From Corallococcus sp. AB018 (GTDB lineage Bacteria > Myxococcota > Myxococcia > Myxococcales > Myxococcaceae), in contig NZ_RAWR01000021.1 in NCBI RefSeq assembly GCF_003986945.1, positions 1 to 64,000 on the forward strand: a stretch of DNA of 64,000 nt, in the 5' to 3' direction. Made by a program: the position numbers and the translations under genes. The notes under the pieces were generated by a model. That model was not told the origin of the DNA and did not search any database. It saw only the letters and a list, made by a program, of their open reading frames with translations. Below are positions 27,926 through 45,406 of this stretch, piece by piece (the first letter of the stretch is position 1; the number at the start of each line of letters is the position of its first letter).

Positions 27926-28024
27926 GGTAGGGCCTCCGGACCTGGTGGCCGGCCCGGTCTTCAAAACCGGTGAGGGGCTGCGAGAGCAGTCCCTGGCGAG
28001 TTCGATTCCCGTGCCCTACCGCCA
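27926..28024 (+). tRNA. selC: tRNA-Sec (anticodon UCA), bacterial 8/5-type with long variable arm
   Basis: 8-bp acceptor stem GGTAGGGC/GCCCTACC, discriminator G, encoded CCA. Anticodon stem CCGGT/ACCGG with loop CTTCAAA (U33, UCA, A37). Long extra arm GAGGGGCTGCGAGAGCAGTCCCTG. GTTCGATTCC T-loop. Folded by eye only. Confidence 0.7.
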
Positions 28025-28090
28025 CACCTCTGCAATCCGGTTAGCGATTCATCGTCACCAGCCAGCAGCTACCAAGAGGTCGACGCACAA

Positions 28091-28480
28091 ATGCCACAGG
28101 ATAAGGAAAGTGGCGCAACTGCCGCTCAATGGGGCCGTGATACAGCTCGACAGCTCGCCGAAAAGCTAGGAGCCAAGCCACTCAGCAACATCTCGAATGA
28201 GGCGCTACTCGACGACGAATTGATTGTGATCAAGTGCGCCAAACCTGACACCGACACCGTCGGTGTCACCTTCAAGATGCTTGCACGCGTGTCCCGCGTA
28301 TTCGGTGCTTTCCAACAGAGCGACGGCAGCTTTGACATTTGGTCACTACCGTCCAGCATTTATTCCAAACATACCCGCGAGTCGGCCGGTCGCGGCTCAT
28401 CCGCTGGAAAGTATGGGCTCGTACGACGAGACGCGTTCCTCTCACTTGGAGTTCACATCGGGACAGTCCGGCTCCCCTAG
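28091..28480 (+). CDS. Hypothetical protein in low-GC islet
   Basis: ORF in compositionally atypical region. No recognisable domain. Confidence 0.35.
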   Translation: MPQDKESGATAAQWGRDTARQLAEKLGAKPLSNISNEALLDDELIVIKCAKPDTDTVGVTFKMLARVSRVFGAFQQSDGSFDIWSLPSSIYSKHTRESAGRGSSAGKYGLVRRDAFLSLGVHIGTVRLP

Positions 28481-28839
28481 TATGCCGAACTAGATTTGAA
28501 CGACTGACTTGGGCCTGACGATCAGCATCGCCCCCAGTCACTGTGAACCCATGGCAATGGAGAGTCGCTTGGCTCTCGGGAAAACAGCACGGCGGCTGGT
28601 CCTGTGGGCTATCGTGGGACCTCTGCTGGCAGGCGCGTTTGGACAGACCGGATGCTCCCATGGAAGCAATCTAGTCATTGGGCGCACTGCACCTGAACAC
28701 TTCCGGCACGCCGTCGGCCCGCACGCTCGACGACAGCCGGTGACCACCCGGAGCGCTTGTCAGTTCTACCTGGTATTACCCGACCTTGCGCCACCGATGC
28801 GCTCCCGAGCAAAGAGCGCCAGCGCCAGGAGGGCTCCGC

Positions 28840-30192
28840 ATGCTGCCACGATGGTCGATTCCCCTACTGATCGTGATGCTGGCCGGATGCAGCGGCACCA
28901 CGAAGTCCGTGCGCCTACACACGGGCCACGGCGACCCCATCGTCCTCACCCCACGCAGCGGCGATGCCGCGCCGGTGGAGTTGGACGAAGACGACTTCGT
29001 TGAAGTCGTAGCAGTGCTCGCCCGGAACGTGCGGCCGTCCACTCATCCCCAGGAAACGGCCCGGCGGTTTTTCGAGATGGATCCGCGCAGCGGTTCGTAC
29101 CTGTACGAGCCGCGCAGCCACCGTGTCATCCCGCTGGGACCGGGCGAACACCTGGACGGTGATCTCCCCTCGACAGAGGTGGATCTGACGCGCGCATACC
29201 TGCGCTGGTGCGAGCGAACGAGCAAACCCGGCGATTGCCTGCGCCTCCTGGTGGAGAGCCCTACTGTCACCGGAGATGGCCGTTACGCCCTGGCCATGGC
29301 CTTGGCCCAAGGCGTCGTGCGGGACGAGATGATGGACGCCTTCAAGGAGATGGCTGATCCCCAGGCCATGATGGCTGCGGTTCTTTGGACGTGGACCACG
29401 TACTGCATCTTGCTCGCGGTGCCCGAGCCTTTCTCGAAGGGCGTGGCCGCCGTGATGACCGCCTCCCTCATTGCCTACGTGGGGGTCGATACGTTCTGGA
29501 GCCTCATCTTGGGCTTCAAGCAGCTGGTGGAGGAGGCGGAGCGGGCCACCACGTTTGACGAACTCCGCGAGGCGGGTGAGCGCTACGGCAAGGTCATGGG
29601 CCGCAACGCGGCGCGCGCGTTCGCCATGTTGGCAACGGCCGCCCTTGGGAACACGGCGGCGGGGCTGGGGTCGAAGGTGCCAATGCTCCCAGGCGCCGCG
29701 CAGGCGGCGGTCCAGGCTGAAGCGCAAATGGGCATCAGGCTCGCGGCGGTCGCGGACGTGGGAACGGTGGCCGTGAGCGCCGAGACCGTCACCATCGCCC
29801 TCGCGCCCGGCGCGGTGGCCATGGGGGCCAAAGCCACGGGCGGCAGCGCCTCCGCCAAGGCGCGTCCCTTGGGCTACAGGGCCTGGAGCTCGTTCAGTGG
29901 TTTCAAGAAGGCCATGGGCCCGGCGGGCAAGAACAAGGAGTGGCACCACATCGTCGAGCAAACTCCGGGCAACGTGAAGCGCTTCGGCCCCCAGGCCCTC
30001 CACAACACCGAGAACCTCATCCCACTGGACAAGATCCTGCACACCGACGTCAGCGCGCTCTACTCGTCGATCCGGCGTAGTATCACCGGCTCGCCATTGA
30101 CCGTGAGGCAATGGTTGAGCACGCAGTCCTACGAGGCCCAGCGTGACTTCGGGCTGCTGGCCATGGAGAACGTGGCGAAGGGGGTCTGGTGA
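28840..30192 (+). CDS. Lipoprotein polymorphic toxin with C-terminal WHH (HNH-superfamily) predicted nuclease domain
   Basis: AGGAGGG ribosome-binding site 8 nt upstream. Lipobox IVMLAGCSG. C-terminal KEWHHIVEQTPGNVKRFGPQALHNTENLIPLDKILHTD carries the W-H-H signature and the downstream H/N pattern of WHH toxin domains. Immediately followed by an overlapping small gene (ATGA). Confidence 0.6.
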   Translation: MLPRWSIPLLIVMLAGCSGTTKSVRLHTGHGDPIVLTPRSGDAAPVELDEDDFVEVVAVLARNVRPSTHPQETARRFFEMDPRSGSYLYEPRSHRVIPLGPGEHLDGDLPSTEVDLTRAYLRWCERTSKPGDCLRLLVESPTVTGDGRYALAMALAQGVVRDEMMDAFKEMADPQAMMAAVLWTWTTYCILLAVPEPFSKGVAAVMTASLIAYVGVDTFWSLILGFKQLVEEAERATTFDELREAGERYGKVMGRNAARAFAMLATAALGNTAAGLGSKVPMLPGAAQAAVQAEAQMGIRLAAVADVGTVAVSAETVTIALAPGAVAMGAKATGGSASAKARPLGYRAWSSFSGFKKAMGPAGKNKEWHHIVEQTPGNVKRFGPQALHNTENLIPLDKILHTDVSALYSSIRRSITGSPLTVRQWLSTQSYEAQRDFGLLAMENVAKGVW

Positions 30193-30542
30193 TGACGTTG
30201 GAGAGATTGGTCGAGCAGTTCGCCCTGAACGTGGCGGCACAGACCGAGGCCATCTTCCGGGGAGATGCCAAGACGGGAAACAAGCACGCCAGGAAGTACG
30301 GTGCAGCCGTCGATAAGCTCCTGGCCCATGGAAACGCAGGACGTGATGCCCTCCTCGTCCTGCTCAAGCATGAGCGCATGGATGTGCGTGTCATGGCCGC
30401 CGCCCATCTGCTCCGCTACCGGACGGCCGAAGCGAAGGCGGTTCTGGAGGAAGCCGCCAAGGGCAAGGGGCTCGTTCCCTTTGAAGCCGGGCAGGCATTG
30501 AAGCGCTGGGAAGAAGGAACCTGGGCGCTCGATCCAGAGTAG
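30189..30542 (+). CDS. Putative immunity protein (DUF2019-like, HEAT-like helical repeats)
   Basis: 117-aa helical protein translationally coupled to the toxin gene (MTLERLVEQFALNVAAQTEAIFRGD...). Resemblance to DUF2019 immunity-type proteins is from memory. Confidence 0.5.
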   Translation: MMTLERLVEQFALNVAAQTEAIFRGDAKTGNKHARKYGAAVDKLLAHGNAGRDALLVLLKHERMDVRVMAAAHLLRYRTAEAKAVLEEAAKGKGLVPFEAGQALKRWEEGTWALDPE

Positions 30543-30552
30543 CCCGCCTCGG

Positions 30553-31161
30553 ATGGACGACCTCATGCCGACGCGGTTCTTCAAGTTGACCGATGATGTG
30601 TACCTCTCCGGCCGGTGGGAGCTGGGGCATCCTCTCGATCAGGAAGGGCGCAAGCTCTATGACCCGTGGCAGTTCAGGATCGGGCAGCGGGCTCACTCGG
30701 ACGAGCGCATCAGGATCCCCATCAAGATCTCCGGCAAACCGCTCGACTATTCCCACGCGGCATTCAGCATCCCCGTCGTCCACGCCCGGGCGGCCTCCTT
30801 CTTCACCGAGCTGGCACCCGACGACATGAAGCTCATCCCGGTGGAGATCGACTCCCAGCCCGCTCAGCACTTCATCCTCAACGCCACCCGGCTGGTGAAG
30901 TGCATCGACGATGCAGCGTGCGAGGAGGTGCGTTACTGGACCCCGGAGGACGGGATGCCCGAAAAGGTGGGTACGTACTCCTCCGTGTCCGGGATGCGCA
31001 TCGACCCGGCGAAGGTGGAAGGCGCCAAGGTGTTCCGCACCTGGGGCTGGACCGTGGCCTTGATCGTGTCCGAGGAGATCAAGGAGGCCCTGGAGCGCGC
31101 GGTCATCACCGGCACGAAGTTCACGGACGTGACCGGCCCCGGTGCAGCCAATGCCCCCTAA
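30553..31161 (+). CDS. Hypothetical protein, possible second or orphan immunity protein (Imm11-like?)
   Basis: 202-aa ORF directly downstream in the same islet. Conserved Trp positions (RTWGWTVALIVSEE). Family assignment is tentative. Confidence 0.45.
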   Translation: MDDLMPTRFFKLTDDVYLSGRWELGHPLDQEGRKLYDPWQFRIGQRAHSDERIRIPIKISGKPLDYSHAAFSIPVVHARAASFFTELAPDDMKLIPVEIDSQPAQHFILNATRLVKCIDDAACEEVRYWTPEDGMPEKVGTYSSVSGMRIDPAKVEGAKVFRTWGWTVALIVSEEIKEALERAVITGTKFTDVTGPGAANAP

Positions 31162-31310
31162 CCCCTGCCGTCCCCACCCGCGTACCCAAGCTGTACCCAA
31201 GATGAACGGACGCGGGTGGACCTTTACGGACTCGCGGTCCACCCCGCGCCAGAGGGAAACGGGCCACCCCTCAATCCTCCCGGGCACCTCGCGGATCGGT
31301 GTGGCGGGGC

Positions 31311-31376
31311 TTCAAAACCGGTGAGGGGCTACGAGAGCAGTCCCTGGCGAGTTCGATTCCCGTGCCCTACCGCCAA
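31311..31376 (+). repeat. Partial duplicate of the tRNA-Sec 3' half (att-like direct repeat)
   Basis: cttcaaaaccggtgaggggct(a)cgagagcagtccctggcgagttcgattcccgtgccctaccgcca matches 27959..28024 with one mismatch. Confidence 0.75.
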
Positions 31377-31426: not shown

Positions 31427-32491
31427 TCACCGATGGGCACTGTTCGAGCCGAGCGTCTGCTCGACCCAACGGTGCCAGGCCGCCGGCTCGTCACCCAGGT
31501 CCCGCCCCGCCAGGATGGCGAGCACCTTGCGAGCAGGCTCGGCATCGGTCTTCTGCTGCATTCCAGCCATCTCCACCAGCACCGCGCCCGCCTTGTCGAG
31601 AATCTGCCGCTGATGGGCGGCGCCTTCGGTTTCCACGATGTGCACGAGCGCCCAGGCTGCCTTGTTGCGGTCGGTCTCGAGCGGGTACCAGAGCGCTTCG
31701 AGCACGGGCTCCAGCGGGATGATGACCCGCGGCTGTCCCTCCTGCATCGTTCCCAGCAGGCGCAGCGCCTCGTTGCGCACACCCTCGTAGGGGTCGCGCA
31801 CCGACGGGAGAACGAGCTTCACCAGTTGCTCGCGTGAGTTGATGTAGGGCAGGAGCATGACCGTGGCCATTCGCTTGGAGTCGTTGCGATCCTCACGCAG
31901 CACCCGCACCAGCGTGTCGAGATTGCGGGGAACACCATCCATGAAGCGCTGCTCCAGCGGCGCGAGCTCGGGGTGGTCGAATCCTCCATGGCAGTTGAGG
32001 GCATGGCACTTGCTCTTGCCGTACTCGGGGACAGCCCCTTCCCTGCTCAGCTTCCAGTAGGCCGTCTGGTATTCATCCCAGGCCGTGAGGAGGCCCTCCG
32101 GCTCCGGGATATCGCCCTGCGGCGCGGGTGAAAAGGGCATACGCCACTCATCTCCGGCATCGACCAGATCCACCGTCACCCGGAACGTCCGCGTCGGCGG
32201 GTAGGCCACCATCGAGTACCTGCAGAACGCGAACTTGTAGGCCGCCAGGAGCCGCGGCTTGCTCTCCATGAGGTACGGCGTGAACTCCCCCTTCTCGAGG
32301 TTGAAGCGCGCGCCGGGCGCAGGCATCCCAATGACCTCCAGCAGCTTGCCCTTGGGCACCTTGCGTGAGCCGAACACCTCCACGCCTTCGAACACGTAGA
32401 CCGGGCTGGGCTGGACCGGCGATGCGGCCTGATGGACAGGCGTTGCACAGGCCGTGAGCAGTGCAAGACCCAAGAGGACAAAGCGCTGCAT
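31427..32491 (-). CDS. Lipoprotein with C-terminal HEAT/ARM-like helical repeats
   Basis: Lipobox LALLTAC. No catalytic motifs seen. Confidence 0.6.
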   Translation of the reverse strand: MQRFVLLGLALLTACATPVHQAASPVQPSPVYVFEGVEVFGSRKVPKGKLLEVIGMPAPGARFNLEKGEFTPYLMESKPRLLAAYKFAFCRYSMVAYPPTRTFRVTVDLVDAGDEWRMPFSPAPQGDIPEPEGLLTAWDEYQTAYWKLSREGAVPEYGKSKCHALNCHGGFDHPELAPLEQRFMDGVPRNLDTLVRVLREDRNDSKRMATVMLLPYINSREQLVKLVLPSVRDPYEGVRNEALRLLGTMQEGQPRVIIPLEPVLEALWYPLETDRNKAAWALVHIVETEGAAHQRQILDKAGAVLVEMAGMQQKTDAEPARKVLAILAGRDLGDEPAAWHRWVEQTLGSNSAHR

Positions 32492-36819: not shown

Positions 36820-39800
36820 ATGGACGTGATGAGAGCCAGCAGGGTCCTGCTGCTGGGATTGGGCTTTGTCGCAGCAGGCTGTAGCAGCAAGCCACCGGAA
36901 GAGAAGACGCTGGCCCACAGCGCTTCGCCGTTGGTGGTGGAGGGGTGGACCGAGGCCGCGCCCATGGCGGAGGCTCGCAAGTACCACGCGGGCGTGGTGC
37001 TGCCTTCCGGCAAGGTGCTGGTGACGGGCGGCTACAACGCCAGCGGGTATCTGTCCTCCTCCACCCTCTTCGACCCCGCTACTGGCGCGTGGACAGCGGC
37101 CGCCTCCATGCCGGAGGCGCGGCAGATCCACGCCATGACGCCGCTGCCTTCGGGCAAGGTGCTCGTGGTTGGCGGAGAGAACGCGACGGGCCGCCTGGCT
37201 TCCGCGGTGGTGTATTCCCCGGACACCAATACCTGGGCCTCCGCTGGGAGCTTTGCCTCGGGCGTGGCACGGGCTTCCCTGACGGCGACGCTGTTGCCTT
37301 CGGGCAAGGTGCTGGTGGCGGGCGGTGGCAACTCCGGCGGCCCCAAGTTCACTGTGGATGTGTATGAGCCGGTGGCGGGAACCTGGAGTGTCGGTCCGAA
37401 TCTGGGAGCGGCGCGGCGCGACCATACGGCGACGCTGCTGACGACCGGGCAGGTGCTGGTGGCAGGCGGCGTCGGGGGCGCGAGCCTGGCGACGGCGGAG
37501 TTGTACAACCCGTCAAGCAATACGTGGGCTGCGACGGGAAGTCTGGCGACGGCGCGCTACAACCACACGGCGACGCTGCTGCCTTCGGGCAAGGTGCTGG
37601 TGGTGGGTGGCCGCAACAGCACCGGGCTGCTGGCGACAGCGGAGGAATACGACCCGGGCACCGGGCAGTGGAGCGCGACGGGCGCGCTGGGCTCGGCGAG
37701 GGAGCTGCACTCGGCCACCCTGCTGAGCACCGGCAAGGTGCTGGTAACGGGCGGCATGTATGGCAGCGCAGCAACAGCCGCACTGGCGAGCTCGGAGGTG
37801 TACGACCCCGTCACCCGGCAGTGGAGCGCGGCGACGCCGATGACCGGTGCGCGGTATTCGTATGTGGCGGTGTCGCTGGCGACGCAGGCCAAGGTGTTGG
37901 TGGTGGGCGGTATTGGCGCCACCGGCGCGAGCCTGAAGACGGCGGAGGTGTACGGGTACGACGCCTGTGCTGGGGTGACGTGCAACAGCGCCCCGGGGGC
38001 CTGCTACGAGGCGGCGGGGACGTGCAGCAATGGCGTGTGCAGCTACGCGCTGAAGGCAGCTGGGGCCACCTGCGACGACGGGGATGCGTGCACCGGGACG
38101 GACGTATGCAACGGCGCGGGCGTGTGCGCGGGAAGCGCCACCCAGTGCGACAGTCCTCCGGGGCAGTGCTATGCGGCGGCGGGGGCATGCAGCGACGGGA
38201 CGTGCTCCTATTCGTACAAGGAAGCCGGTGACGCGTGTGATGACGGGGATGCGTGCACGGTGGATGAGACGTGCAACGGAGCGGGCGGGTGCGCGGGCAC
38301 GCCGGTGACTTGCAGCAGCCCTCCGAGCCAGTGCTTCGAGGCGGCGGGAACGTGCAGTGAGGGCGCGTGCTCCTATGCGCCGAAGGCGGCGGGCACTGCC
38401 TGTGATGACGGCAATGGCGGCACCATCAACGATGTGTGCAGCGGAGCGGGCGTCTGCGCGGGCGTGCCGGCCTGCACGACGCCGCCGGATGCCTGCCACG
38501 CCTCACCGGGCACCTACTCCAACGGAGCGTGCACCTACCCGCCGAAGGCCGCGGGCACCCTCTGCGATGATGGCAACGCCTGCACGACGGGCGATGTCTG
38601 CAACGGTGCGGGCACGTGCGGTGGTGCGGCCCTGAGCTGCAACAGCCCTCCCAGCCAGTGCCACCAGGCCGCCGGCACCTGCTCCAACGGTGCCTGCAGC
38701 TATGCACCGAAGTCCTCGGGTGCGAGCTGCGATGACGGCAACGCGTGCACGACGGGAGACGTCTGCAACGGTGCCGGCACCTGCGGCGGCTCGGCCCTGA
38801 GCTGTAACAGCCCGCCCAGCCAGTGCTACGAGGCCGCGGGCACCTGCTCCAACGGCACCTGCAGCTACGTGCCGAAAGCCTCGGGGGCCAGCTGCAATGA
38901 CGGCAACGCGTGCACGACCGGTGACGTGTGCAACGGCTCCGGCACTTGCGGTGGCTCGGCGCTGAGCTGCAACAGCCCTCCCAGCCAGTGCTACGAGGCG
39001 GCGGGAACCTGCTCCAACGGCACCTGCAGCTACGTGCCGAAGGCTTCGGGTGCCAGCTGCAATGACGGCAACGCGTGCACGACCGGTGATGTGTGCAATG
39101 GCTCCGGCACCTGCGGTGGCTCGGCGCTGAGCTGCAACAGCCCGCCCAATCAGTGCTACCAGTCCGCCGGCACTTGCTCCAACGGCACCTGTTCCTACGT
39201 GCCGAAGGCTTCGGGTGCCAGCTGCGATGACAGCAACGCGTGCACCACGGGAGACGTCTGCAACGGTGCTGGCGGCTGCGGCGGCACGGCGCTGAGTTGC
39301 AGCACCGCGAGCACCAATTACTGCAGCGGAAATGACGTCCGGAAGACCACCGGCACCGGCACCTGCAGCGGCGGCTCCTGCCAGTCCACCGACGTCCTCG
39401 TGCAGTCGTGCCAGACCGGCACCAGCGGCCCCTTCTGCAGCGGCAATGGTGCCTACGAGACCGTCTATGGCGGCTGCTCCAACGGTGCCTGCACGTCCAC
39501 CCAGCAGCTCATCGAGTCGTGCTCCACCTCCAGCAGCAACTACTGCAGCGGCAACACCGTCCGGAAGCTGACCGGCACCGGTTGCAGCGGCGGCAACTGC
39601 GGCTCCACCGACACCCTCGTCCAGACGTGCTCCACCTCGAGCAGCAACTACTGCAATGGCAATGACGTGCGGAAGACCACCGGCACCGGTTGCAGCGACG
39701 GCTCCTGTGGCTCCACCGACACGCTCGTCCAGACGTGCCCGACGGGCACCAGCAGCCCCTTCTGCAGCGGCAGCAGCGTCTATCGGACCCTCAATGCCGG

Positions 39801-41046
39801 CTGCAGCGGAGGCGCCTGCGCGTCCAGCCAGCAACTCGTCGAGACGTGCTCCACCTCCAGCAGCAACTACTGCAGTGGCAACACCGTCCGGAAGACCACT
39901 GGCACCGGCACTTGCAGCGGCGGCTCCTGCGGCTCCACCGACACCCTGGTCCAGACGTGCTCCACCGCGAGCACCAACTACTGCAGCGGCAATGACTTGC
40001 GGCGCACCAGTGGCACGGGCACCTGCAGCGGCGGTTCCTGCGGCTCCACGGACACCCTCGTGCAGACGTGCCAGACCGGCACCAGTGGCCCCTTCTGCAG
40101 TGGCAACGGTGCCTACCGGACCGTCTATGGCGGCTGCTCCAGCGGTGCCTGCACGTCCTCCCAGCAGCTCATCGAGTCGTGCTCCACCTCCAGCAGCAAC
40201 TACTGCAGCGGCAACACCGTCCGGAAGGTCACCGGCACCGGCTGCAGCGGTGGCTCCTGCGGCTCGACTGATACCGCCGTCCAGACGTGCTCCACCGCGA
40301 GCAGCAACTACTGCAGCGGCAACACCGTTCGCAGGACCACCGGCACCGGATGCAGCGACGGCTCCTGTGGCTCCACCGATACGCTCGTCCAGACGTGCAC
40401 GACCGGCACCAGCAGCCCCTTCTGCAGCGGCAACAGCGTCTACCAGACCGTCAATGGCGGCTGCAGCGGAGGTTCCTGCTCATCCAGCCAGCAGTTCGTC
40501 CAGACGTGCTCCACCGCGAGCACCAACTACTGCAGCGGCAATGATGTGCGGAAGACCACCGGCACCGGTTGCAGCGGCGGCTCCTGTGGCTCCTCCGATT
40601 CCTTCGTCCAGACGTGCTCCACCGCGAGCACGACCTACTGCAGCGGCAACAACGTTCGCAGGACGACCGGCACCGGTTGCAGCAGTGGCAACTGCGGCTC
40701 CACCGATACCCTGGTCCAGACGTGCTCCACCGCGAGCACGACCTACTGCAGCGGCAACACCGTCCGCAGGACGACCGGCACCGGTTGCAGCGGCAGCGGC
40801 ACCTGCGGCTCCACCGACACCCTGGTCCAGACGTGCAACAGCCAATTTGAGATGTGCAGCGATGGCGCCTGCGTCTCCAACGATGGGCTCTGGCAGTTGG
40901 TGGGTTCGTGCAGCACGAGGTGCCCATCCAATGAATGCTGGCCCCCCGTCAACCCGGAAGGTCAGGACTGCAGGCCGGTGGGTTCTACCTGCTTCGCTTA
41001 CGGCGGTCCCACCGGTCGTAACGAATGGAAGTGCGCGCCGTACTGA
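36820..41046 (+). CDS. Giant lipoprotein with Kelch beta-propeller, myxo-type Cys-rich repeats and a 36-aa four-Cys tandem repeat (paralogue 1)
   Basis: Lipobox FVAAGCSS. Seven Kelch motifs (GKVLVTGG/ARxxH). About 10 CNSPPSQCYEAAGTCSNGTCSY...CDDGNACTTGDVCNGAGTCGG repeats (Myxococcus cysteine-rich repeat type). About 20 copies of a four-Cys unit in two alternating subtypes, the most regular being CSTSSSNYCSGNTVRKTTGTGCSGGSCGSTDTLVQT. Confidence 0.8.
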   Translation: MDVMRASRVLLLGLGFVAAGCSSKPPEEKTLAHSASPLVVEGWTEAAPMAEARKYHAGVVLPSGKVLVTGGYNASGYLSSSTLFDPATGAWTAAASMPEARQIHAMTPLPSGKVLVVGGENATGRLASAVVYSPDTNTWASAGSFASGVARASLTATLLPSGKVLVAGGGNSGGPKFTVDVYEPVAGTWSVGPNLGAARRDHTATLLTTGQVLVAGGVGGASLATAELYNPSSNTWAATGSLATARYNHTATLLPSGKVLVVGGRNSTGLLATAEEYDPGTGQWSATGALGSARELHSATLLSTGKVLVTGGMYGSAATAALASSEVYDPVTRQWSAATPMTGARYSYVAVSLATQAKVLVVGGIGATGASLKTAEVYGYDACAGVTCNSAPGACYEAAGTCSNGVCSYALKAAGATCDDGDACTGTDVCNGAGVCAGSATQCDSPPGQCYAAAGACSDGTCSYSYKEAGDACDDGDACTVDETCNGAGGCAGTPVTCSSPPSQCFEAAGTCSEGACSYAPKAAGTACDDGNGGTINDVCSGAGVCAGVPACTTPPDACHASPGTYSNGACTYPPKAAGTLCDDGNACTTGDVCNGAGTCGGAALSCNSPPSQCHQAAGTCSNGACSYAPKSSGASCDDGNACTTGDVCNGAGTCGGSALSCNSPPSQCYEAAGTCSNGTCSYVPKASGASCNDGNACTTGDVCNGSGTCGGSALSCNSPPSQCYEAAGTCSNGTCSYVPKASGASCNDGNACTTGDVCNGSGTCGGSALSCNSPPNQCYQSAGTCSNGTCSYVPKASGASCDDSNACTTGDVCNGAGGCGGTALSCSTASTNYCSGNDVRKTTGTGTCSGGSCQSTDVLVQSCQTGTSGPFCSGNGAYETVYGGCSNGACTSTQQLIESCSTSSSNYCSGNTVRKLTGTGCSGGNCGSTDTLVQTCSTSSSNYCNGNDVRKTTGTGCSDGSCGSTDTLVQTCPTGTSSPFCSGSSVYRTLNAGCSGGACASSQQLVETCSTSSSNYCSGNTVRKTTGTGTCSGGSCGSTDTLVQTCSTASTNYCSGNDLRRTSGTGTCSGGSCGSTDTLVQTCQTGTSGPFCSGNGAYRTVYGGCSSGACTSSQQLIESCSTSSSNYCSGNTVRKVTGTGCSGGSCGSTDTAVQTCSTASSNYCSGNTVRRTTGTGCSDGSCGSTDTLVQTCTTGTSSPFCSGNSVYQTVNGGCSGGSCSSSQQFVQTCSTASTNYCSGNDVRKTTGTGCSGGSCGSSDSFVQTCSTASTTYCSGNNVRRTTGTGCSSGNCGSTDTLVQTCSTASTTYCSGNTVRRTTGTGCSGSGTCGSTDTLVQTCNSQFEMCSDGACVSNDGLWQLVGSCSTRCPSNECWPPVNPEGQDCRPVGSTCFAYGGPTGRNEWKCAPY

Positions 41047-41677: not shown

Positions 41678-44600
41678 ATGAATGTGTTGAGAGCCAGCAG
41701 GGCTCTGCTGTTGGGATTTGTCTGCGTACTCGTAAGCTGTAGCAGCAAACCACCGGAAGAGAAGACACCGGCCCAGAGCGCTTCCCCATTGGTGGTGGAA
41801 GGGTGGACCGAGACCGCGCCGATGGCGGAGGCCCGCAAGTACCACGCGAGCGTGGTGCTGCCTTCCGGCAAGGTGCTGGTGACGGGCGGCTACAACGCCA
41901 GCGGGTATCTGTCCTCCTCCACCCTCTTCGACCCCGCTACTGGCGCGTGGACAGCGGCCGCCTCCATGCCGGAGGCGCGGCAGATCCACGCCATGACGCC
42001 GCTGCCTTCGGGCAAGGTGCTCGTGGTTGGCGGAGAGAACGCGACGGGCCGTCTGGCTTCCACGGCGGTGTATTCCCCGGACACCAATACCTGGGCCTCC
42101 GCGGGGAGCTTCGCGACGGGCGTGGCACGGGCTTCCCTGACGGCGACGCTGTTGCCTTCGGGCAAGGTGCTGGTGGCGGGCGGGGGCAACTCCGGCGGCC
42201 CCAAGCTCAGTGTGGATGTGTATGAGCCAGTGGCGGGAACCTGGAGCGTGGGTCCGAATCTGGGAGCGGCGCGGCGCGACCATACGGCGACGCTGCTGAC
42301 GACCGGGCAGGTGCTGGTGGCGGGCGGCGTCGGGGGCGCGAGCCTGGCGACGGCGGAAGTGTATGACCCGACGAGCAATACCTGGACGGCGACGGGAAGC
42401 CTGGCGGCGGCGCGCTACAACCACACGGCGACGCTGCTGCCTTCGGGCAAGGTGCTGGTGGTGGGTGGCCGTAACAGCAGCGGGCTGCTGGCGACAGCGG
42501 AGGAATACGACCCGGGCACCGGGCAGTGGAGCGCGACGGGCGCGCTGGGCACGGCCAGGGAGCTGCACTCGGCAACCCTGCTGAGCACCGGCAAGGTGCT
42601 GGTGACTGGAGGCATGTATGGCAGCGCAGCGACGGCCGCACTGGCGAGCTCGGAGGTGTACGACCCGGCCACCCGGCAGTGGAGCGCGGCGGGCCCCATG
42701 GCCGGTGCGAGGTATTCGCATGTGGCGGTGTCGCTGGCGACGCAGGCCAAGGTGTTGGTGGCGGGCGGTATTGGCGCCACCGGCGCGAGCCTGAAGACGG
42801 CGGAGGTGTACGGGTACGACGCATGTGCTGGGGTGACGTGCAACAGCGCACCGAGTCAGTGCTACGAGGCGGCGGGGACGTGCAGCAATGGCGTGTGCAG
42901 CTACGCGCTGAAGGCGGCTGGGACCACCTGCGATGACGGGGATGCGTGCACCGAGACGGACGTATGCAACGGCGCGGGCGTGTGCGCGGGAAGAGCCACC
43001 CAGTGCGGCAGTCCTCCGGGGCAGTGCTACGCGGCGGCGGGCACATGCAGCGACGGGACGTGCTCCTATTCGTACAAGGCGGCCGGTGACGCGTGTGATG
43101 ACGGGGATGCGTGCACGGTGGATGAGACGTGCAACGGGGCGGGCGGGTGCGCGGGCACACCGGTGGCTTGCAGCAGCCCTCCGAGCCAGTGCTTCGAGGC
43201 GGCGGGAACGTGCAGCAGTGGGGCGTGCTCCTATGCGCCGAAGGCGGCGGGCACGGCCTGTGATGACGGCAATGGCGGCACCATCAACGACGTGTGCAGC
43301 GGAGCGGGCGTCTGCGCGGGCGTCCCGGCCTGCACAACGCCGCCGGACGCCTGCCATGGCTCCCCGGGCACGTACTCCAACGGAGCGTGCACCTACCCGC
43401 CGAAGGCCGCGGGCACCCTCTGCGATGATGGCAACGCTTGCACGACGGGCGACGTCTGCAACGGTGCTGGCACCTGTGGCGGCTCGGCGCTGAGCTGCAA
43501 CAGCCCGCCCAATCAGTGCTACCAGTCCGCCGGCACTTGCTCCAACGGCACCTGTTCCTACGTGCCGAAGGCCTCGGGCGCCAGCTGCGATGACAGCAAC
43601 ACATGCACCACGGGAGACGTCTGCAACGGTGCTGGCGGCTGCGGCGGCACGGCGCTGAGTTGCAGCACCGCGAGCACCAATTACTGCAGCGGAAATGACG
43701 TCCGGAAGACCACCGGCACCGGCACCTGCAGCGGTGGATCCTGCCAGTCCACTGACGTCCTCGTGCAGTCGTGCCAGACCGGCACCAGCGGCCCCTTCTG
43801 CAGCGGAAATGGTGCCTACGAGACCGTCTACGGCGGCTGCTCCAACGGCGCCTGCACGTCCACCCAGCAGCTCATCGAGTCGTGCTCCACCTCCAGCAGC
43901 AACTACTGCAGCGGCAACACCGTCCGGAAGCTGACCGGCACCGGTTGCAGCGGCGGCAACTGCGGCTCCACCGACACCCTCGTCCAGACGTGCTCCACCT
44001 CGAGCAGCAACTACTGCAACGGCAATGACGTGCGGAAGACCACCGGCACCGGCTGCAGCGACGGCTCCTGTGGCTCCACCGACACGCTCGTCCAGACGTG
44101 CCCGACGGGCACCAGCAGCCCCTTCTGCAGCGGCAGCAGCGTCTACCGGACCCTCAATGCCGGCTGCAGCGGAGGCTCCTGCTCGTCCAGCCAGCAACTC
44201 GTCGAAACGTGCTCCACCTCCAGCAGCAACTACTGCAGTGGCAACACCGTCCGGAAGACCACCGGCACCGGCACTTGCAGCGGCGGCTCCTGTGGCTCCA
44301 CGGACACCCTCGTCCAGACGTGCTCCACCGCGAGCACCAACTACTGCAGCGGCAATGACTTGCGGCGCACCAGTGGCACGGGCACCTGTAGCGGCGGCTC
44401 CTGCGGCTCCACGGACACCCTCGTGCAGACGTGCCAGACCGGCACCAGCGGTCCCTACTGCAGCGGCAACGGTGCCTACCAGACCGTCTACGGCGGCTGC
44501 TCCAACGGCGCCTGCACGTCCACCCCGCAACTCATCGAGTCGTGCTCCACCTCGAGCAGCAACTACTGCAGCGGCAACACCGTCCGGAAGGTCACCGGCA

Positions 44601-45406
44601 CCGGCTGCAGCGGCGGCTCCTGTGGCTCCACCGACACCGCCGTCCAGACCTGCTCTACTTCGAGCAGCGACTCTTGCAGCGGCAACACCGTCCGGAGGAC
44701 CACGGGCACCGGTTGCAGCGGTGGCTCCTGTGGCGTCACCATCACGGATATCATGAATTGCCCGACCGGCACGGGCAGCCCCTTCTGCAGCGGCAACAGC
44801 GTCTACCAGACCGTCAATGGCGGCTGCAGCGGAGGCTCCTGCGCGTCCAGCCAGCAGTTCGTCCAGACGTGCCCGACCAGCACCGGCAGCCCCTACTGCG
44901 TCGGTAACACCGTCTACCAGGTCGTCAATGGCGGCTGCAGCGGAGGCTCCTGCGCGTCCAGCCCGCAGCCCGTCACGACATGCTCCCCGGTGGACAGCTA
45001 CTCCTGCAGCGGAAACACCGTCCAGAGGACCACCAGCGGCTCCTGCAGTGGTGGCAGTTGCGGTGGCAGCACCACCACCAACGTCCAGACGTGCTCCCCG
45101 GTGGACAGCTACTCCTGCAACGGCAACACCGTCCAGAAGACCACCACCGGCCTCTGCAGCGGCAGCGGCTGTACTGGCACCTCCACCACCAACGTCCAGA
45201 CCTGTGGCAGCGGACAGACGTGCAGCAATGGAACGTGCGTCGCCTCCGGCGGGAAATGGACCAACACAGGGACGTGCACCTTTGGGGCCCCGTCCTGCCA
45301 GAACTACAACTGCACCAACTTCTACCCAGATACGGCCTGCTCACCGTTGGGCGCTACTTGCACCATCTCCACAGGCTCCGGAATCTACAGGTGGATCTGC
45401 CTGTAG
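41678..45406 (+). CDS. Giant Kelch/Cys-repeat lipoprotein (paralogue 2, tandem duplicate with diverged C-terminus)
   Basis: Near-identical N-terminal 1000 aa to the preceding gene, including duplicated 5' leader. Lipobox VLVSCSS. Distinct C-terminal CSPVDSYSCSGNTVQRTT repeats. Confidence 0.8.
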   Translation: MNVLRASRALLLGFVCVLVSCSSKPPEEKTPAQSASPLVVEGWTETAPMAEARKYHASVVLPSGKVLVTGGYNASGYLSSSTLFDPATGAWTAAASMPEARQIHAMTPLPSGKVLVVGGENATGRLASTAVYSPDTNTWASAGSFATGVARASLTATLLPSGKVLVAGGGNSGGPKLSVDVYEPVAGTWSVGPNLGAARRDHTATLLTTGQVLVAGGVGGASLATAEVYDPTSNTWTATGSLAAARYNHTATLLPSGKVLVVGGRNSSGLLATAEEYDPGTGQWSATGALGTARELHSATLLSTGKVLVTGGMYGSAATAALASSEVYDPATRQWSAAGPMAGARYSHVAVSLATQAKVLVAGGIGATGASLKTAEVYGYDACAGVTCNSAPSQCYEAAGTCSNGVCSYALKAAGTTCDDGDACTETDVCNGAGVCAGRATQCGSPPGQCYAAAGTCSDGTCSYSYKAAGDACDDGDACTVDETCNGAGGCAGTPVACSSPPSQCFEAAGTCSSGACSYAPKAAGTACDDGNGGTINDVCSGAGVCAGVPACTTPPDACHGSPGTYSNGACTYPPKAAGTLCDDGNACTTGDVCNGAGTCGGSALSCNSPPNQCYQSAGTCSNGTCSYVPKASGASCDDSNTCTTGDVCNGAGGCGGTALSCSTASTNYCSGNDVRKTTGTGTCSGGSCQSTDVLVQSCQTGTSGPFCSGNGAYETVYGGCSNGACTSTQQLIESCSTSSSNYCSGNTVRKLTGTGCSGGNCGSTDTLVQTCSTSSSNYCNGNDVRKTTGTGCSDGSCGSTDTLVQTCPTGTSSPFCSGSSVYRTLNAGCSGGSCSSSQQLVETCSTSSSNYCSGNTVRKTTGTGTCSGGSCGSTDTLVQTCSTASTNYCSGNDLRRTSGTGTCSGGSCGSTDTLVQTCQTGTSGPYCSGNGAYQTVYGGCSNGACTSTPQLIESCSTSSSNYCSGNTVRKVTGTGCSGGSCGSTDTAVQTCSTSSSDSCSGNTVRRTTGTGCSGGSCGVTITDIMNCPTGTGSPFCSGNSVYQTVNGGCSGGSCASSQQFVQTCPTSTGSPYCVGNTVYQVVNGGCSGGSCASSPQPVTTCSPVDSYSCSGNTVQRTTSGSCSGGSCGGSTTTNVQTCSPVDSYSCNGNTVQKTTTGLCSGSGCTGTSTTNVQTCGSGQTCSNGTCVASGGKWTNTGTCTFGAPSCQNYNCTNFYPDTACSPLGATCTISTGSGIYRWICL

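Follow-up and report, generated by a model that had tools for sequence, protein, structure and literature searches.

The window analysed here, the first 64,000 nucleotides (nt) of contig NZ_RAWR01000021.1 of Corallococcus sp. AB018, very likely carries a sitAI5 toxin-immunity cassette next to its gene for tRNA-Sec (selC). The cassette consists of a gene for a SitA5-type lipoprotein toxin, a gene for a DUF2019 protein that, judged by its position here and in related genomes, is the cognate immunity protein SitI5, and an additional imm11 gene, most simply read as a remnant of an earlier form of the cassette. The best explanation for the locus as a whole, and one that we hold with high confidence, places the cassette on a horizontally acquired islet of 3.35 kilobases (kb) at an attachment site (attB) in the 3' end of the tRNA-Sec gene. 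The SitA5/SitI5 family of the Myxococcaceae was reportedly described by Vassallo & Wall in 2019, and the cassette is an ordinary member of this published, database-annotated and thus already known family. The features of the locus are as follows.

27926..28024, plus strand: tRNA-Sec gene, selC (ARAGORN; Rfam RF01852, 70.5 bits)
27956-28024, plus strand: left islet repeat, attL-like, the last 69 nt of tRNA-Sec (repeat detection)
28025..28704, no strand: low-GC spacer, 56-60% GC against about 70% in the left flank (composition)
28705..28839, plus strand: conserved sitA5 upstream region, candidate promoter or 5' untranslated region (5'UTR), ending in AGGAGG (75-92% nt identity)
28840..28890, plus strand: type II (lipoprotein) signal peptide with lipobox LAGC and predicted lipidated Cys17 (read from the sequence)
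28864..29661, plus strand: SitA5 escort domain, residues 9-274 (NCBIfam NF050093)
29662..29859, plus strand: Ala/Gly-rich pre-toxin linker, residues 275-340 (blastn and blastp against locus L083; family alignment)
29860..30192, plus strand: C-terminal toxin domain, HNH-like, residues 341-450 and stop codon (homologues, alignment, model)
30189..30542, plus strand: sitI5, putative cognate immunity gene, DUF2019, HEAT-like and helical, 116 or 117 amino acids (aa) (Pfam PF09450; synteny)
30553..31161, plus strand: orphan imm11, 198-202 aa, start at 30553 or 30565 (Pfam PF07791)
31307..31375, plus strand: right islet repeat, attR-like, a 97% copy of the 3' 69 nt of tRNA-Sec, closing the 3.35-kb islet

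A lipoprotein toxin of the SitA5 family

SitA toxins comprise six families of lipoproteins, each set by its escort domain, that are moved between cells by TraAB-dependent outer-membrane exchange (PMC8546572). The toxin open reading frame (ORF, 28840-30192) encodes 450 aa from an ATG start to a TGA stop (30190-30192) and is preceded by the Shine-Dalgarno sequence AGGAGG (28827-28832), with a 7-nt spacer to the ATG. Its product begins with MLPRWSIPLLIVMLAGC, followed by a domain with two hydrophobic segments (residues ~176-226, by hydropathy) that matches the NCBIfam model NF050093, 'SitA5_escort', along the entire profile (positions 1-262 of 262) with an E value of 5.6e-116 and 386.6 bits, the cut-off being 160. 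A Pfam scan of the 450-aa protein returned zero families. An identical protein is found in three NCBI records (WP_120576600.1; Corallococcus sp. AB030 and unclassified Corallococcus), and in public databases this protein and its C. exiguus mates in the 90% cluster are named 'SitA5 family polymorphic toxin'. Given the three identical records, the full-length profile match and 138 homologues of its C-terminus, the ORF is a real gene and not a chance reading frame. A first-pass annotation, made from the letters of the window, had pointed to the strong AGGAGG site, to a type II signal peptide with a LAGC lipobox and to a SitA-like lipoprotein polymorphic toxin, and all three are borne out, the last specifically as SitA5. 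The SitA5_escort match spans the full profile and so excludes the other option of that annotation, a novel N-terminal delivery domain.

The gene thus shares with known SitA5/SitI5 systems the lipobox signal, a full-length escort domain, a modular, nuclease-type C-terminal tip, an immunity gene directly 3' in the operon, and a fitting genus. It differs in the added orphan imm11 and in its place in a tRNA-Sec islet rather than Mx-alpha, neither of which is essential. Elsewhere in the window, the escort, toxin and immunity genes have no further copies.

Approximately 135 nt 5' of sitA5 are also conserved (75-92% nt identity) at many unrelated sitA5 loci, including those with AHH-type alleles; the core of this region is CTCTATCTGGTATTGC...CCAGCGCCAGGAGGGCTCCGCATG. 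RNAalifold gives a consensus structure of -7.5 kcal/mol with 0 compensatory pairs, and there is no Rfam match to the 135-nt region. This conserved stretch probably serves as a promoter or 5'UTR and moves together with the cassette.

Shortened relatives of the toxin (P0022, P0032 and P0070) occur in Corallococcus and in metagenomes. They pass directly from the opening ~60-100 residues of the SitA5 escort domain into the toxin tip (…EPRSGSYLHDPRGRK-WHHIVEQ…), and one of them, P0070, also has the lipoprotein signal. By their sequences they look like internal deletions that removed most of the escort domain.

The DUF2019 protein as cognate immunity

The second ORF starts either at GTG 30189, overlapping the toxin ORF by 4 nt, or at ATG 30192, overlapping it by 1 nt (local sequence GGTGATGACG). 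The ATGA coupling proposed at first pass therefore stands in that the start codon overlaps the toxin stop, while a literal ATGA overlap is not there. The proposed DUF2019-type protein of 117 aa agrees with the Pfam result, as the product scores 27.1 bits against PF09450 (gathering threshold 23.3). Its homologues number 743, and nearly all of the 120 listed carry PF09450. The closest entry in the PDB is 2I9C (RPA1889, uncharacterised), the single solved structure of the DUF2019 family, which matches over the full length with an E value of 0.0011.

Each species being represented by one genome, we surveyed by tblastn the best 80 of 267 loci that encode the toxin domain, all of them in Myxococcaceae or Archangiaceae. 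In 80 out of 80 loci, a DUF2019 homologue starts only a few bases from the toxin stop, and nearly all have a SitA5 escort domain 5' of the toxin domain. The association extends beyond SitA5: a 94-aa standalone copy of the tip, an Rhs-associated orphan and a copy in Elusimicrobium minutum are each followed by a gene of 114-117 aa. The products of the first two are 64% and 55% identical to the DUF2019 protein of the window, and the third is a marginal match (30%, E value of 0.09). Because of the invariable downstream position and the presence beside copies outside SitA5, we identify the DUF2019 gene, on comparative grounds, as the cognate sitI5. This implies an immunity function for at least the branch of DUF2019 that is tied to this toxin tip.

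The C-terminal toxin domain

The toxin tip contains the motif KEWHHIVEQ...LHNTENLIPLDKILHTD, which includes W368, H369 and H370. A word-indexed search with the C-terminal 110 aa retrieved the 138 homologues mentioned above, none of which has a precomputed Pfam domain. A profile of the tip, searched against 1.84 billion representatives, matched 2,279 clusters (at 50% identity) at E<=1e-3, of which 1,627 reach E<=1e-10. Without exception, the matching segment is the extreme C-terminus, in host proteins of 90 to 2,800 aa. The long carriers are Rhs or TcdB-type proteins, one of them with PT-VENN, and the tip is without a Pfam model in all. Such a distribution across sequences is the signature of a polymorphic-toxin tip that would be common to several delivery systems.

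Alignment of the family reveals invariant residues (H369, H370, E373, F382, N389, N392, H401, T421, R423, Q434 and G438), all of which are kept in the window protein, and the tripeptide W368-H369-H370 is nearly invariant. In the AlphaFold2 model (predicted local distance difference test score of 86), a strand (EWHHI) ends in the two histidines, a second strand follows the Asn residues, and a helix carries H401. The modelled topology is consistent with a beta-beta-alpha-metal core. The sub-significant structural matches include named HNH endonucleases; when PDB sequences were searched, neither the toxin profile nor the full protein returned anything relevant. Weak matches to the Pfam family HNH_2 (PF13391) were detected in 16 of 40 close relatives (best E value of 8.4e-5), the sole recurrent Pfam signal. 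The toxin domain of SitA5 is known to be modular, the tested alleles carrying HNH (PF13391) or AHH (PF14412), and that of SitA5-Mf1 is labelled HNH (PF13391) (PMC8546572). Taken together, the tip is likely an HNH-type nuclease.

An imm11 gene probably kept from an earlier cassette

The third ORF, which follows the DUF2019 gene after a gap of 10 nt, had been described as possibly Imm11-like, and this is confirmed by Pfam (PF07791, 46.7 bits against a gathering threshold of 22.1, E value of 3e-12). As a partner of the adjacent toxin, Imm11 does not fit: no Imm11 homologue lies within 4 kb of the toxin domain in any of the 80 loci, and the partners of its orthologues are AHH toxins. The first pass had proposed two candidate immunity genes; of these, the DUF2019 gene is retained as cognate, and imm11 is a relic, the immunity gene of a displaced AHH tip.

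Close relatives of this Imm11 (86-92% identity) occur widely across Myxococcus and Corallococcus. In three loci (L083, L084 and L085), an Imm11 with 86-90% identity is encoded directly 3' of a 458-aa protein with a Pfam AHH tip, and these AHH-tipped proteins are SitA5 as well (NF050093, 338-341 bits). In two of these, both from Myxococcus (L083 and L084), the AHH cassette lies directly after tRNA-SeC, the insertion site that the cassette of the window also uses. The SitA5-AHH/Imm11 cassettes of M. xanthus DK1622 and of L083-L085 share with the window the escort family (50% aa identity), the upstream region and imm11 (~89% nt identity), and L083 and L084 also share the tRNA-Sec site; their tip, in contrast, is AHH (PF14412) without a DUF2019 gene, whereas that of the window is of the WHHIVEQ type.

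Nucleotide similarity between the window and L083 extends over three stretches: 28705-29012 (80%), which takes in the upstream region and ~57 codons from the start of the gene; 29437-29828 (70%), part of the escort domain and linker; and 30550-31277 (89%), which begins opposite the first base after the AHH stop codon. Between alleles of the escort family, homology breaks at about residue 330-345. The linker holds a conserved ...VTIALAPGAVAM... stretch, after which homology to the SitA5-AHH alleles ends, marking the module junction. Because the imm11 orthologues pair with AHH toxins and the homology breakpoints flank the new tip and the DUF2019 gene, the simplest reading of these sequences is that imm11 is the kept immunity gene of an ancestral SitA5-AHH/Imm11 cassette whose tip was replaced by the HNH-like tip together with DUF2019. 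On the same reading, the recombination point would lie in or after the conserved ...VTIALAPGA(V/L)AM... stretch. The imm11 gene probably still protects against neighbours that carry the AHH allele.

Exchanges of this kind are familiar from CdiA-CT/CdiI systems of contact-dependent growth inhibition (CDI) and from Rhs-CT/RhsI arrays, where tip and immunity gene move as a unit and recombination occurs at a conserved pre-toxin motif. Five loci of the toxin domain (L005, L010, L034, L035 and L039) have, 3' of the main sitI5, arrays of toxin-tip fragments each with a DUF2019 gene, or runs of two or three DUF2019 genes. The arrays of the first four are classic orphan modules like those of CDI and Rhs loci, with displaced immunity genes and orphan tip fragments downstream. 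The window, however, keeps the old immunity gene only and no orphan toxin fragment, and SitA5 is delivered as a lipoprotein by outer-membrane exchange rather than by CDI or a type VI secretion system. The locus is a clean natural case of the replacement of tip and immunity gene in which the earlier immunity gene was kept.

The tRNA-Sec islet

The location at a selC islet outside Mx-alpha, also suggested at first pass, is borne out by two direct copies of the tRNA-Sec 3' end (27956-28024 and 31307..31375). Between these repeats lie only the sitAI5 cassette and a 680-bp spacer, and the GC content of the islet is 56-65%, compared with ~70% in the left flank. The same repeat copies are found in L001 (GCA_003668965.1, a sister strain with an identical toxin) and L002 (another assembly with an identical toxin). 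L002 matches the window throughout, whereas L001 departs from it left of 27959. There, a prophage-like element (L001:7890-9185) encoding DNA polymerase A, a DNA methyltransferase, a terminase-like ATPase and a tyrosine integrase (phrog_1, E value of 4e-11) abuts a third repeat copy (66-69 nt), in tandem with the sitAI5 islet. Therefore, the 3' repeat of tRNA-Sec is a live attB at which elements pile up in tandem.

As in elements that target tRNA genes, a direct repeat of the tRNA 3' end bounds foreign DNA, but the islet lacks an integrase of its own. Family scans and an integrase similarity search found no integrase or integrase remnant between the repeats, the spacer included, and the only integrase at this site belongs to the tandem prophage in L001. 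An ORF of 129 aa in the spacer (28091-28480) was considered as a gene (sitB, a regulator or an integrase relic) and rejected: it has zero matches in Pfam, NCBIfam and PHROG, no homologue in the 80 related loci, and is uncalled in two NCBI assemblies.

A second islet without an integrase was found in a metagenome-assembled genome of Archangium (L049, 2256-4671). It holds just a sitA5-sitI5(DUF2019) pair, flanked by a tRNA-Met gene (2256-2329) on one side and, on the other, by a 48-nt repeat of the 3' end of that gene (4624-4671). Four other loci (L005, L010, L043 and L044) have a tRNA gene near sitA5, with no repeat detected. The att repeats at tRNA-Sec, the tRNA-Met example and the sister-strain prophage in tandem at the same att site raise the speculative and rather unlikely possibility that the islet is a minimal toxin-immunity cassette that moves satellite-like between tRNA att sites, borrowing in trans the tyrosine integrase of a prophage with the same att site as its target.

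Alternative explanations

Several results weigh against the interpretation of the locus as a sitAI5 cassette with an HNH-type tip. The closest Pfam model, HNH_2, scores only 13 bits on the window protein (E value of 0.097-0.24) against a gathering threshold of 21, and at E<=0.01 the Pfam nuclease families match 0 of 122 more diverse relatives. The sitA5 upstream region has no sigma-70 consensus, and homologues of traA, traB and exbB1 do not lie in the window, so that delivery is deduced from family membership only. The C-terminal domain had been assigned at first pass to the W-H-H toxins, and the literal tripeptide, nearly invariant in the family, speaks for a genuine Tox-WHH (PF14414) nuclease. 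Tox-WHH is likewise a polymorphic-toxin domain of the HNH/EndoVII fold, with the signature 'WHH, L, H, HxG' and the immunity partners Imm-SUKH, Imm28 and Imm37 (PMC3482391). Like Tox-WHH and other tips of the HNH/EndoVII fold, the tip is a short C-terminal domain found on Rhs, CDI and further polymorphic toxins, in which Asn and His come after an HH doublet. However, Pfam WHH is not listed for the window protein or its C-terminus alone (E<=10, sub-threshold HNH_2 being the best match), for 40 relatives (E<=10) or for 122 relatives (E<=0.01), with the limit that the HMMER filters remove most matches above an E value of about 0.1. The family alignments have no conserved HxG, and the immunity partner is DUF2019 rather than any of the three known for Tox-WHH. 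The tip further differs by a helix-containing insert of ~20 residues that separates the HH strand from the second strand, and by a helical extension of ~45 aa (TVRQWLSTQSYEAQ..FG). Profile, signature and immunity partner all speak against it, and with zero matches among 162 family members we reject membership in Tox-WHH, which we regard as highly improbable; what remains of the W-H-H assignment is the tripeptide itself. We conclude that the tip, for which an HNH-type nuclease remains our preferred assignment, is not a member of the WHH family and has no model in Pfam or NCBIfam.

Immunity to the toxin could instead require both downstream genes as a two-component system, or Imm11 could be the real partner. 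The three genes are packed on one strand, with only 10 nt before 30553, and Imm11 has been reported beside Tox-HNH as well as Tox-AHH and Tox-SHH (PMC3482391). Against this stand the survey counts (DUF2019 in 80 of 80 loci, Imm11 in none) and the pairing of the close orthologues with AHH toxins, and the breakpoints assign imm11 to the older AHH cassette, so that we consider a role for Imm11 in immunity to the present toxin extremely unlikely. It is also very unlikely that the cassette is a silent relic of a decayed mobile element, neither expressed nor delivered. The islet is without an integrase and a promoter consensus, and shortened derivatives of the toxin exist in other genomes; but here the ORF is full-length with every family-invariant residue, the lipobox, the strong ribosome-binding site and the coupled immunity gene are intact, the toxin protein is identical in three independent assemblies, and the conservation of the 135-nt upstream region at many sitA5 loci suggests a maintained expression signal.

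Neighbouring genes

To the right of the islet, the core genome resumes with a gene (31427-32491, minus strand) for a 354-aa HEAT-repeat protein with its own lipoprotein signal (MQRFVLLGLALLTAC). The gene that follows the islet in the Myxococcus loci L083 and L084 encodes a HEAT_2 protein different from this one (289 aa, plus strand). Farther along the window, two large tandem paralogues (36820-41046 and 41678-45406) encode Kelch/beta-propeller repeat proteins of 1408 and 1242 aa that have internal nucleotide repeats in common (75-93% identity).

Proposed mechanism and significance

By its signal peptide and lipobox, the 450-aa SitA5 precursor would be exported, lipidated at Cys17 and anchored in the outer membrane. 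Following the SitA5 literature, contact between TraA-matched cells would allow TraA/TraB-dependent outer-membrane exchange to hand the lipoprotein to a neighbour, where the escort domain (residues ~9-274) and the linker would bring the toxin into the cytoplasm. In M. xanthus, the entry of SitA5, with alleles taken from M. fulvus, needs ExbB1 (MXAN_1448) and MXAN_0057 (PMC8546572), and by analogy entry here may depend on the same proteins. Once inside, the C-terminal domain of ~105 aa would act as an HNH-like nuclease with a beta-beta-alpha-metal core. Kin would be shielded by the co-translated, cytoplasmic DUF2019 protein, which is linked to the toxin gene and may act by binding the toxin. The imm11 product would take no part, being a leftover of the ancestral SitA5-AHH/Imm11 cassette.

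The locus leaves the current understanding of the SitA system unchanged. The SitAI5 loci of M. xanthus DK1622 include eight ahh-imm11 loci, and extra imm11 genes are common and unexplained (PMC12077181); the locus shows one route by which such genes can arise. It also marks tRNA-Sec as a hot spot that gathers sitAI cassettes and prophages. In addition, it ties DUF2019, annotated as of unknown function, to a widespread toxin domain that is itself without a Pfam or NCBIfam model. If true, this would be the first function for DUF2019 (including 2I9C), namely immunity against an HNH-like tip family of 2,279 clusters. For Corallococcus, the cassette adds one more allele to the SitA 'self-identity barcode' by which myxobacteria tell kin from non-kin.

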